A stretch of 64,000 bases of DNA, taken from positions 849,748-913,747 of the forward strand of contig CAWEKV010000002.1 in assembly GCA_963809785.1 (NCBI GenBank). The letters are read 5' to 3'. Below are positions 1-3,079 of the stretch, in pieces. The position numbers and the translations under genes were made by a program. This DNA is from an uncultured Planctomycetia bacterium (GTDB taxonomy: Bacteria; Planctomycetota; Planctomycetia; Pirellulales; S012-138). The notes beneath the pieces were generated by a model that saw only the letters and a program-made list of their open reading frames with translations, was not told where the DNA came from and ran no database searches. How positions within the stretch are numbered: the stretch's first letter is position 1; each line of letters opens with the position of its first letter.

Positions 1-990
1 AGAGCGTGGATTGGAGGGCATCGTCTCCAGACGCCATTCTCGGTACGCGGGCCGCCGGTCGGCTGATTGGCTCAAGGTTAAGTGCTTCCGAGAGGCGGCT
101 TGCCCCGTGTTCGTCCGTTGCATAGAATCCCATCGTATGCTCTCCTTCACGTGAGAGCGGCAATAACTGTACATAAGGTCCGAATAACAAAGTTCGGCGG
201 CGCGGAAGCGAGCCGATGGACGGCCCGGCTTCCACCACCCGTCCATCTACGGGAGAACGTGTGATGGCCGAAAAGTGCCCTGATTGTGTCGGTAGCGGGA
301 AGGTGGGATATGAGGAAATAATGGGTAGCTCTTACACTGGACGACGCGGTACAAAGGTGTGCGGCAGATGTAAGGGATCGGGACGGGTCGAAAAATATAT
401 GGGCACCGACGCCTTGGACCGACCATGCACTTATGAGCGACCAGGTTGTTTCCCCGCTGGCACTCGCATCGAAACACCGCGCGGTGTTGTTGATATCGCT
501 TCAGCAAAAGAAGGTGACATTGTTCTCGCATTCGACCGCAGCCGAAATATGTTGCGTAGCCGAAGGATCATCAAGGTCTGCAAATATGGGAAGAACACGA
601 TATGGGAGATAGTCTTCACGGACGGGAAAAGAATTCGGACGACTGCCAGCCACTCTTTTTGCGTTGGCCATATCTGGAGACAGGCTCGCCAAATCGTTGC
701 GACTGATTACCTCTGCTGCCTCGATGCATCTGGACGAATTGCGACGCGACAAGTGGCCATGTCGTCTTCGACAACCGAATTAGAAGAGGTGTTTAATCTC
801 ATAGTTGACGGAGATTTTTCATTCGTCGCCGACGGACTCGTGGCTCACAGCTTCTCCTACTTCAGGGCGCTTCGGATATTGGGGTGGAGCGTTTACAGTA
901 TGATTCAGGACTGGATTCGCGCCGCCCGCCACATCGCCGCAACGCATCCACCGAACTTCGGATGCCCTCATCGGCCCAAATCCCGTACGG
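1..990. mobile_element. Probable right end of a genomic island integrated in lepA
   Basis: Lower-GC accessory genes abut a decapitated lepA 3' end. No integrase is visible in the window. Confidence 0.45.
2..154 (+). pseudogene. C-terminal fragment of an ATP-dependent DNA ligase (LigC/LigD-like adenylation domain), truncated before the OB domain; runs off the window edge
   Basis: Frame 2 (not in the ORF track) reads ERGLEGIVSRRHSRYAGRRSADWLKVKC, matching ligase motifs IV (EGIV) and V (WLKVK). Stop TGA at 152-154. Confidence 0.7.
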
Positions 991-1079
991 CAGCAGGGAC
1001 TACGACTTGTTGGGCTACGTCGCCGCCGATCTGGTGCGGATGGACATCCTGGTGGCCGCCAATCGCGTGGACGCGCTGA
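264..1079 (+). CDS. DnaJ-type CxxCxGxG zinc-finger peptide fused to a Hint (intein/Hedgehog-like) domain
   Basis: RBS-like GGGAGA before ATG 264. Motifs CPDCVGSG and CGRCKGSG. Hint block A G|CFPAGT (Cys at 447), block B TASH, and blocks [23 protein letters not shown] (to 851). Visibly lower GC than the rest of the window. The 3' tail overlaps the lepA remnant out of frame. Confidence 0.85.
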
Positions 1080-1390
1080 GCGTCATCTGCCACCGCGGCG
1101 ACGCCGACCGCCGCGGCCGGGCGGTGGTCAAGAAGCTCCGCACCGAGATCGACCGCCACATGTTCGAGGTGGTCCTGCAAGCCGCCATCGGCAGCCGGGT
1201 GATCGCCCGCGAAACGATCTCGGCCATCCGCAAGAACGTCACCGCCAAGTGCTACGGCGGCGACATCACCCGCAAGCGCAAGCTGTGGGCCAAACAGCGC
1301 GAGGGGAAGAAGCGGATGAAATCGATCGGCTCGGTCGATATCCCGCAGAAGGCGTTCCTGGCGGTGCTGGATACGGGGCAGGAAAAGTAG
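986..1390 (+). pseudogene. lepA: 3' terminal fragment of elongation factor 4 (LepA)
   Basis: Reads [19 protein letters not shown]...[43 protein letters not shown], the LepA C-terminal domain. LepA similarity stops abruptly upstream of ~986 and there is no GTPase domain. Confidence 0.9.
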
Positions 1391-1604
1391 TGGCGTAGCA
1401 CACTTCGAGTGCCGAAAGGCGGGCCAGCATTCCTACCCGCCTGGTACACCCCACGAGTGGGTAAGGGAGTGGCTCCGAGCGCGTCTCGCGCGTCCCGCCG
1501 CTCCCTCGCTTGCGCGGCGGGTCAGTGTGCTCCACGGCTTGTCGAAGGCCGAGCCAAGGACCACAATTTGCCTTCCCCCCGTACCGCCGTCAGAGAGCAA
1601 CGCA

Positions 1605-2857
<1,253 letters not shown>

Positions 2858-2860
<3 letters not shown>

Positions 2861-3074
2861 CAAGGTGACAAGGTGACAAGGTGAGAGGGGGCTTTGCCCA
2901 AGAACCGCCCGTTCATTGCCCAAGAGGCCGAACATCAACACTCAACATCGAACATCCAACGTCCAACATCGAACGGATGTTACATGAACACGTTCGATGT
3001 TGGACGTTGGATGTTCGATGTTGGATGTTCTTCACCTTGTCACCCTGTCACCTTGTCACCCTGTCACCTTGTCA
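2858..3074. repeat. Nested inverted arrays of tandem short repeats: outer ACAAGGTG octamers, inner AACATCG/AACGTCC heptamers
   Basis: 2858-2886 pairs with 3032-3074, and 2930-2974 pairs with 2992-3030. Lies between convergent genes. Confidence 0.9.
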
Positions 3075-3079
3075 TGTCC

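Follow-up and report, generated by a model that had tools for sequence, protein, structure and literature searches.

Autoprocessing of Hedgehog (Hh) requires C143, which forms a branched thioester (PMC12054796). The D46A mutant of Hh still forms the thioester but loses cholesterol transfer (PMC13738340), the D46H mutant is active (PMC12054796), and both SRR helices are required (PMC7242414). Alignments of Hog domains read DG-x-x-x-S-[CS]-[YF], some with Ser (PMC2362128, supplement S15), and the same article states the origin of Hog domains as unknown (PMC2362128). Hint-activated transfer of a peptide to a small molecule is reported only for Hedgehog (PMC7242414).

Cyclisation of a terminal Asn is driven by the block-F His and the penultimate His (PMC7765530). 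In A-type BIL domains, the thioester is open to attack by the newly formed amino end; B-type BIL domains, which are without His-Asn, cleave without splicing (PMC4031507). Ciliate BIL2 joins the ubiquitin-like domain that precedes it to lysine residues of other proteins (PMC8616854).

Here, a window of 64,000 nucleotides from an uncultured Planctomycetia bacterium (GCA_963809785.1, contig CAWEKV010000002.1) was analysed around a gene that the initial annotation had described as a possible Hedgehog-like autoprocessing protein. As judged from sequence, the protein belongs to a genuine and new variant family within the Hint superfamily, which resembles Hedgehog in its layout and in the motif at the Hint end.

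The gene and its surroundings

The open reading frame (P0001; features in Table 1) has GGAGA directly 5' of its ATG. The elements noted earlier, namely two CxxCxGxG motifs, the G|CFPAG junction, TxxH, the AHS end and the residues following it, are all present in the translation, and the 26 residues after Ser196 read exactly as first given. The CxxCxGxG motifs of the N-extein are CPDCVGSG at residues 5-12 and CGRCKGSG at residues 33-40, and a one-zinc finger of the DnaJ/anti-TRAP motif type is predicted for this peptide. Its Pfam match to DnaJ_CXXCXGXG (PF00684; E 0.0027) is under the cut-off, as are the matches of the protein to models of the Hint clan. Block F reads V176-F-N-L, with Asn178 as the block-F Asn.

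Table 1. Features of the Hint gene and its flanks (positions in the window)
Feature	Position	Strand	Evidence or remark
End of ATP-dependent DNA ligase (LigD-like) fragment	1..154	+	PF01068 E 0.14, weak; translation
Whole ORF, 271 aa	264..1079	+	GC 53%, GC3 55% over 264-950 versus ~65% for the genome
N-extein, 61 aa, ends with Gly61	264..446	+	two CxxCxGxG motifs (276-299, 360-383)
Hint domain, residues 62-196 (135 aa)	447..851	+	sequence, fold model, structural alignment
Cys1 of Hint = Cys62	447-449	+	junction Gly61|Cys62-Phe-Pro-Ala-Gly
Lys107 at the Hedgehog D46 position	582-584	+	sequence comparison
TxxH = T127-A-S-H130	642-653	+	intact
Phe185 at the block-F His position	816-818	+	alignment
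Hint end A194-His195-Ser196	codons CAC AGC at 846-851	+	sequence
Post-Hint motif F-S-Y-F-R-x-L-R-x3-W	852..908	+	conserved; start of helix
Predicted helix, residues 201-227	864-944	+	basic, amphipathic, non-transmembrane
lepA 3' 405 bp	986..1390	+	PF06421; 88% identical to 3' end of the full upstream lepA

An AlphaFold2 model of residues 1-229 (150-row alignment; mean pLDDT 87.5) consists of a Hint fold and the confident tail helix; pLDDT is >90 from about residue 61 to the end, and 50-70 in the zinc-finger part. Foldseek agrees with the Hint fold. The model aligns structurally with the Npu DnaB intein (Z 22.6), Drosophila Hedgehog (1at0; Z 21.4), the C. thermocellum BIL (Z 20.6) and ciliate BIL2 (Z 20.2); in alignments to several inteins residue 196 falls on their last residue, as read from range ends only.

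A full lepA lies directly upstream of the window, and the 3' end of lepA recurs at the end of the Hint gene. With 94% identity to a lepA from the same genus, against 86% for the upstream copy, this second piece is most likely the native lepA end in a displaced position, marking the right edge of an integrated islet. The 1.4 kb between the lepA copies, with a GC content of 53% versus 65%, is most likely the remnant of an integrated element (islet), which starts ~410 bases before the window and holds the ligD-like fragment and the Hint gene. The native C-terminus had been suspected to be clipped at the lepA junction; codon 241 is the first within the repeat and lies 25 codons beyond the conserved part of the protein, which rules out a clipped functional C-terminus. 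As the junction follows the conserved helix, off-frame read-through is confined to the last 30 residues, which are not conserved.

Second partial lepA matches are also present in two other genomes of the order (G438:C5:8900-8965 and G425:C47:13537-14320), which points to lepA as a site of repeated integration within the group. Both glyA (window 1600-2860) and the upstream lepA (L001:12582-14587) contain several frameshifts, typical of an unpolished long-read assembly, so that single-base features of the source genome need outside support. After glyA, in the intergenic stretch at 2860-3075 of the window, short and imperfect repeats of the gacaaggt/accttgtc and tcgaacatcc/ggatgttcga types occur as nested palindromes, and similar stretches are found elsewhere in the genome. 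Another Hint protein, encoded on the minus strand ~13 kb upstream of the window (L001:844-2433; G000:C2, ~835.6-837.2 kb), has NPS|CFAAGT and TRGH; a helical-repeat region precedes the Hint part, and the end of the protein seems to carry a frameshift.

A family with a constant Hint-helix unit and variable front peptides

Relatives were collected as 15 proteins, then 78 by profile, then the best 150 of 2,509 phmmer hits, giving 194 distinct relatives. After exclusion of 13 longer than 460 aa, mostly tandem Hints, 181 single-Hint relatives of up to 460 aa remained. Among the matches listed, the post-Hint motif F-[TS]-[YHR]-[FL]-R-x-x-R-x3-W is present in 169 of the 181; as two positions of the tail served for sorting and the tail was part of the query, the counts describe this family and not Hints generally. 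The 12 without the motif comprise eight Hints with an R[SG]K-PP end, two tandem Hints that end in HN, and two fragments.

The median pairwise identity in the family is 34%. Of the 169 members, 134 have Ser as the last Hint residue, 31 have Asn, 3 have Cys and 1 has Gly, with SSF (4) and HCF (3) among the end variants. Cys1 is kept in 167 of the 169, the other two being without the N-terminus; TxxH is found in 167, the block-F Asn in 163 and the penultimate His (His195) in 159. Conservation continues beyond the Hint domain, with Phe at +1 in 167, Ser or Thr at +2 in 165, Arg at +5 in 149 and at +8 in 146, and Trp at +12 in 117. HS-F and the helix after it are conserved features of the family.

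Homologs ending in HN had been named as a sign of an isolated mutation or a sequencing error in this one genome. Such homologs do occur, as the 31 Asn-ending members, but the prevalence of Ser rules both out. For a decayed or non-catalytic Hint, or an error in one genome, one could point to the assembly in which glyA and lepA are broken and to the single base that separates AAC from AGC; the near-invariance of Cys1 and TxxH, the frequency of Ser and the HSF found at all 10 loci examined make this reading highly implausible.

Positions 197-208 carry 2.3 bits per column, compared with 1.95 for the Hint domain, and the value is 0.75 by positions 216-225. The tail helix has a hydrophobic moment of 0.42 (0.28 when shuffled) and a net charge of +3, and is nearly free of Asp and Glu; the tail is transmembrane-like in 3 of 168 members. 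From this make-up, a basic amphipathic helix that binds the anionic membrane is slightly favoured; alternatively, the helix could merely pack on the Hint domain. For docking of the tail on the Hint face that the SRR uses, Ile103-Trp208 is a top co-variation pair, with no support in independent pairs. As the 31 HN-ending members carry the same helix, the helix did not arise with Ser.

The N-exteins are, by contrast with this constant back, short (median 49 aa), polar and mutually unrelated in the 169 members. No CxxC is present in 105 of them; 34 have CxxCxGxG, 21 have two other CxxC pairs and 9 have one. CxxCxGxG needs 26 changes on the tree. A zinc finger as the defining cargo is thus ruled out, and the zinc-finger peptide is one of many interchangeable N-terminal peptides. 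Because the N-exteins are unrelated, the zinc finger is exchangeable cargo, and at the sequence level Hint plus helix is the constant unit of the family. Larger N-exteins with an L7/L12-like motif or Sel1 repeat occur in P0166, P0193 and P0158, which supports cargo exchange; TIGR00855 (L7/L12-like) matched one member, and the assignment to these ids was made by eye. By hydropathy window, a hydrophobic stretch occurs in 5 of the 169 N-exteins, that of the protein studied here not among them.

No model names the family in NCBIfam scans of 150 members or Pfam scans of 34 proteins, and the freely accessible literature searched holds no description of it. This bacterial family is rare, sporadic and apparently undescribed. 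Among 5,563 candidates of 560-2000 aa, no long fused form was found, the set yielding only 2 intein-bearing proteins, which is weak evidence. For one pair, dN/dS was obscured by saturated synonymous sites; ESM Atlas Hint clusters were below 0.9 and serve as leads at most, and shares in sequencing runs were 0.12 or less.

Two other kinds of Hint protein were encountered. P0091, P0095, P0101, P0105, P0114, P0131, P0149 and L014 (G046:C30) contain 3-5 Hint domains in tandem, connected through HNK-G(1-4)-C linkers; a signal peptide ending ARGGG stands before most of these arrays, and in the two scanned a Tim44-like domain comes after them; removal of all Hints by splicing would leave a short Gly/Lys-rich N-terminus. 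In a second odd family (P0015, P0075-P0082), the domain begins with an 11-residue start sequence, T-Q-P replaces the His of TxxH, and the R[SG]K-PP end is followed by a Pro-rich tail, so that both His residues and the Asn are absent. One copy lies in the same genome (L026, G000:C1:3000860-3001273, minus strand).

Ten distinct related loci belong to Gammaproteobacteria, Phycisphaerae, Acidobacteriota and metagenomes; going by database names, Gemmatimonas and Ca. Thiodiazotropha are hosts as well. The family is therefore not specific to planctomycetes. In genome surveys, in which at most seven candidates per genome were scored, the gene was found in 1 of 401 genomes of the same phylum and in 1 of 400 of a second class, each being the seed genome. 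Matches in seven other genomes of the phylum are, where the ends were read, HN-ending Hints without the tail. None of 401 Acidobacteriota genomes matched at 1e-30, a limit below which the partial seed gene of that sample itself falls.

This rarity and scatter, the variable front with a conserved back, the position of the gene in an integrated islet and, at 6 of 8 related loci, a GC content of the gene below that of the flanks would fit a one-gene sensor-effector protein for conflict, in which the peptide serves as sensor or inhibitor and its cleavage unmasks the cationic helix, which damages the membrane; the helix would be freed in Asn-type members and Hint-bound in Ser-type members. This is improbable, as no PADLOC defence model was matched besides the intein-associated endonuclease (15 of 150), no defence neighbourhood was recognised, and no member was found in viral contigs, phage records or plasmids, plasmids giving only a 27% Hint match. 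Common gene neighbours were absent from the ten distinct loci, so that no partner or substrate is indicated.

Chemistry expected at the two ends of the Hint domain

In the alignment, the strongest co-variation is that of the last Hint residue with positions 181 and 185. His185 is present in 26 of the 31 Asn-ending members and 2 of the 136 others; Thr181 is present in all 31 and in 1 of the 136. As Asn and the block-F His are lost together, both parts for C-terminal cleavage are gone in Ser-type members while the N-terminal set is kept, and C-terminal cleavage looks switched off in them. These patterns agree with the initial annotation, which held that a Hint domain without its terminal Asn would not cleave C-terminally but could still form the N-terminal thioester.

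A fast tree gives 14 Asn/Ser changes with the two types mixed, but its branches are without support, and repeated switching was rejected as a conclusion; on supported branches, the Asn/His/Thr co-variation has 1 independent pair only, and the switch may represent one or a few events. The Ser codons are AGY in 10 of 10 examined, one transition from Asn (AAY). This fits descent from Asn followed by strong constraint and is no proof of Ser as a nucleophile; Ser may have been reached as the simplest replacement for Asn and not selected for as a nucleophile.

Among described Hint domains, A-type BIL or PT-HINT domains (2lwy; PF07591) share Cys1, TxxH, the block-F V[YF]N[LF] and the penultimate His with the family, as well as the absence of an endonuclease and of a +1 nucleophile (the +1 residue being Phe), the hypervariable flanks and the non-conserved host protein; the C. 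thermocellum domain is matched by profile at E 1.4e-19. The 31 HN members fit the A-type. In contrast, the protein studied here ends in His-Ser, and it and 137 other members are without the terminal Asn, nearly all without the block-F His as well. The C-flank also differs, being a conserved helix, and a secretion signal and toxin domain are absent.

The absence of His-Asn in Ser-type members is shared with B-type BILs (PF13403, Hint_2). B-type BILs have Ser, Cys or Thr near the C-terminal end. Unlike them, the family keeps the intein-like block G His in nearly all members and has the conserved tail helix, and PF13403 reaches only 21.6 bits on this protein (cut-off 28.4; model positions 2-37 only), its matches in the family being weak and mostly confined to the first 30-45 model positions. 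Vint (PF14623; 8r2c) likewise combines a Hint domain with a C-terminal extension, and the structural match extends to residue 219 (Z 12.0, rmsd 4.1), but identity is 8% and no VWA or Vwaint domain is present here. The terminal Asn, the +1 nucleophile and the insertion in a conserved host protein that mark class 1 inteins are all absent. A likeness to CFI-box-CTERM (NF041770) was discarded, as this model gave no match on the Hint genes of 5 host genomes.

The best explanation, which we hold to be probable, is an N-terminal-only autoprocessor that releases its peptide while the Hint domain stays joined to the helix. By established Hint chemistry, Cys62 would attack the Gly61 carbonyl with the help of Thr127 and His130 to produce a thioester; judging by the residues observed, this N-to-S acyl shift very likely works. 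C-terminal cleavage would not follow, the needed residues being absent, and its loss is considered very likely. The helix would remain on the Hint domain, for which it is predicted to act either as a tether to the inner membrane face or as a gate of the active site. By analogy with Hedgehog Cys143, the acyl group may then move to Ser196 as a branched ester, a step we regard as conceivable but more doubtful than the others. Water is the acceptor that seems somewhat preferable for the final discharge, by which the 61-aa zinc-finger peptide would be released, probably at the membrane. For Asn-type members, cleavage at both ends is expected, as in A-type BILs, and these proteins could join the peptide directly to the helix by splicing.

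Likeness to Hedgehog and alternative acceptors

The Hedgehog-like layout first proposed stands, and the likeness at the end of the Hint domain is closer than was then seen. In the structural alignment with 1at0, residues 62-198 lie on 258-402 (134 aligned, Z 21.4, rmsd 1.5, 15% identity), and by the range ends Ser196 aligns with the terminal Asn of inteins and with Drosophila Hh Cys400 (C143). D190-G-L-V-A-H-S-F197 is in register with the Hog motif given above. The nucleophile at the C143 position and the following aromatic residue (motif J) are thus Ser196-Phe197, and Ser or Cys occupies the position in 137 of 169 members. The order of peptide-Gly, Cys, Hint and amphipathic helix, the TxxH, the small nucleophile with an aromatic residue (HS-F versus SC-Y) and the expected lack of C-terminal cleavage are shared with Hedgehog and Hog domains (PF01079).

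Other features differ. The penultimate His replaces Ser, block F is of the intein type, and the protein appears cytoplasmic: no export signal was found by hydropathy window, whereas the N-terminal domain of Hedgehog is secreted. The Asp of D46, whose absence had been rightly noted, is Lys107 here, and among 167 members it is Asp in 9 and His in 3; this register is from sequence comparison and may be off by one residue from the conserved His/Tyr108, this neighbour being His, Tyr or Phe in 154 of 169. In comparison with the Hog sterol-recognition region, a Hint fold followed by a helix is indeed predicted, but there is one helix and not a helix-loop-helix with HWY: an HWY-like motif occurs in 0 of 169 tails, and Pro two residues before the Arg in 1 of 167.

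True Hedgehog-type chemistry, with a sterol or hopanoid esterified to the peptide, would be favoured by the same order of parts, by Ser or Cys at the C143 position together with the SSF and HCF variants, by PF01079 matches that, in 3 of 31 scanned proteins, extend beyond the Hint domain, and by the F-x-x-x-R spacing, which is like that of hSHH F377/R381. Most evidence argues against it. The D46 position is poorly conserved, although D46A Hh is inactive with cholesterol; two SRR helices are required, against one conserved helix here; and PDB sequence matches favour the mini-intein and A-type BIL (E 1e-19 to 1e-20) over Hedgehog (2e-5). No sterol pathway was found in the five host genomes tested (incomplete MAGs; source MAG 67%): squalene cyclase exceeded the cut-off in none, TIGR01787 reached its cut-off in none, and PF13243 gave short, weak matches in the source genome and none in the 4 others. 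The suggested sterol or hopanoid ligation is accordingly not supported: this chemistry is very improbable, and a sterol or hopanoid as the final acceptor scarcely less so. We read the likeness to Hedgehog as convergence from an A-type BIL and not as Hog membership.

Ligation to other acceptors is less remote. In a self-ligase, the helix might deliver the activated peptide to the membrane; there, a phospholipid head group or a membrane protein would attack the (thio)ester through an amine or hydroxyl, and the peptide would become covalently anchored. Amine acceptors would need no D46-type base, and the aromatic or His neighbour of the D46 position recalls the active D46H Hh. Ciliate BIL2 (BUBL; 6y75, 6tmm), a ligating Hint domain, is among the top fold matches (fold E 2e-11), but it has a terminal Asn and ubiquitin-like flanks, whereas here the terminal residue is Ser and no ubiquitin-like domain is present; the N-exteins of this family share no fold, unlike such cargoes. 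Gly precedes Cys1 in 100 of 169 members, as would suit a ligated peptide, yet Gly at -1 is common before Hint domains generally. That the helix is so strongly conserved hints at a specific partner, but no acceptor gene lies near the related loci. A self-ligase is thus unlikely, as is the fuller proposal of single-gene self-lipidation or self-ligation, with an exchangeable peptide, a Ser196 branched-ester relay and a helix that hands the peptide to a lipid or protein of the membrane; taken by itself, final transfer to an amine or hydroxyl, whether of a protein or of a phospholipid, is a less doubtful but still minor possibility. Release by water, following N-terminal processing alone, remains our preferred reading.

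If hydrolysis is the only outcome, the family is still a Hint subfamily unnamed by the Pfam and NCBIfam models scanned. If self-lipidation or self-ligation is true, this would be the first small-molecule-ligating Hint domain outside Hedgehog, in a family that holds both splicing-type (His-Asn) and Hedgehog-type (Ser/Cys-aromatic) states and shows their interconversion. As the Asn- and Ser-ending forms share the tail, they offer a small (~24 kDa) bacterial pair in which the change from a two-ended BIL to a one-ended Hedgehog-like processor is testable. The family also allows a test of whether a branched ester forms on a Ser at the C143 position, and it could supply natural N-cleavage-only or ligating tags.
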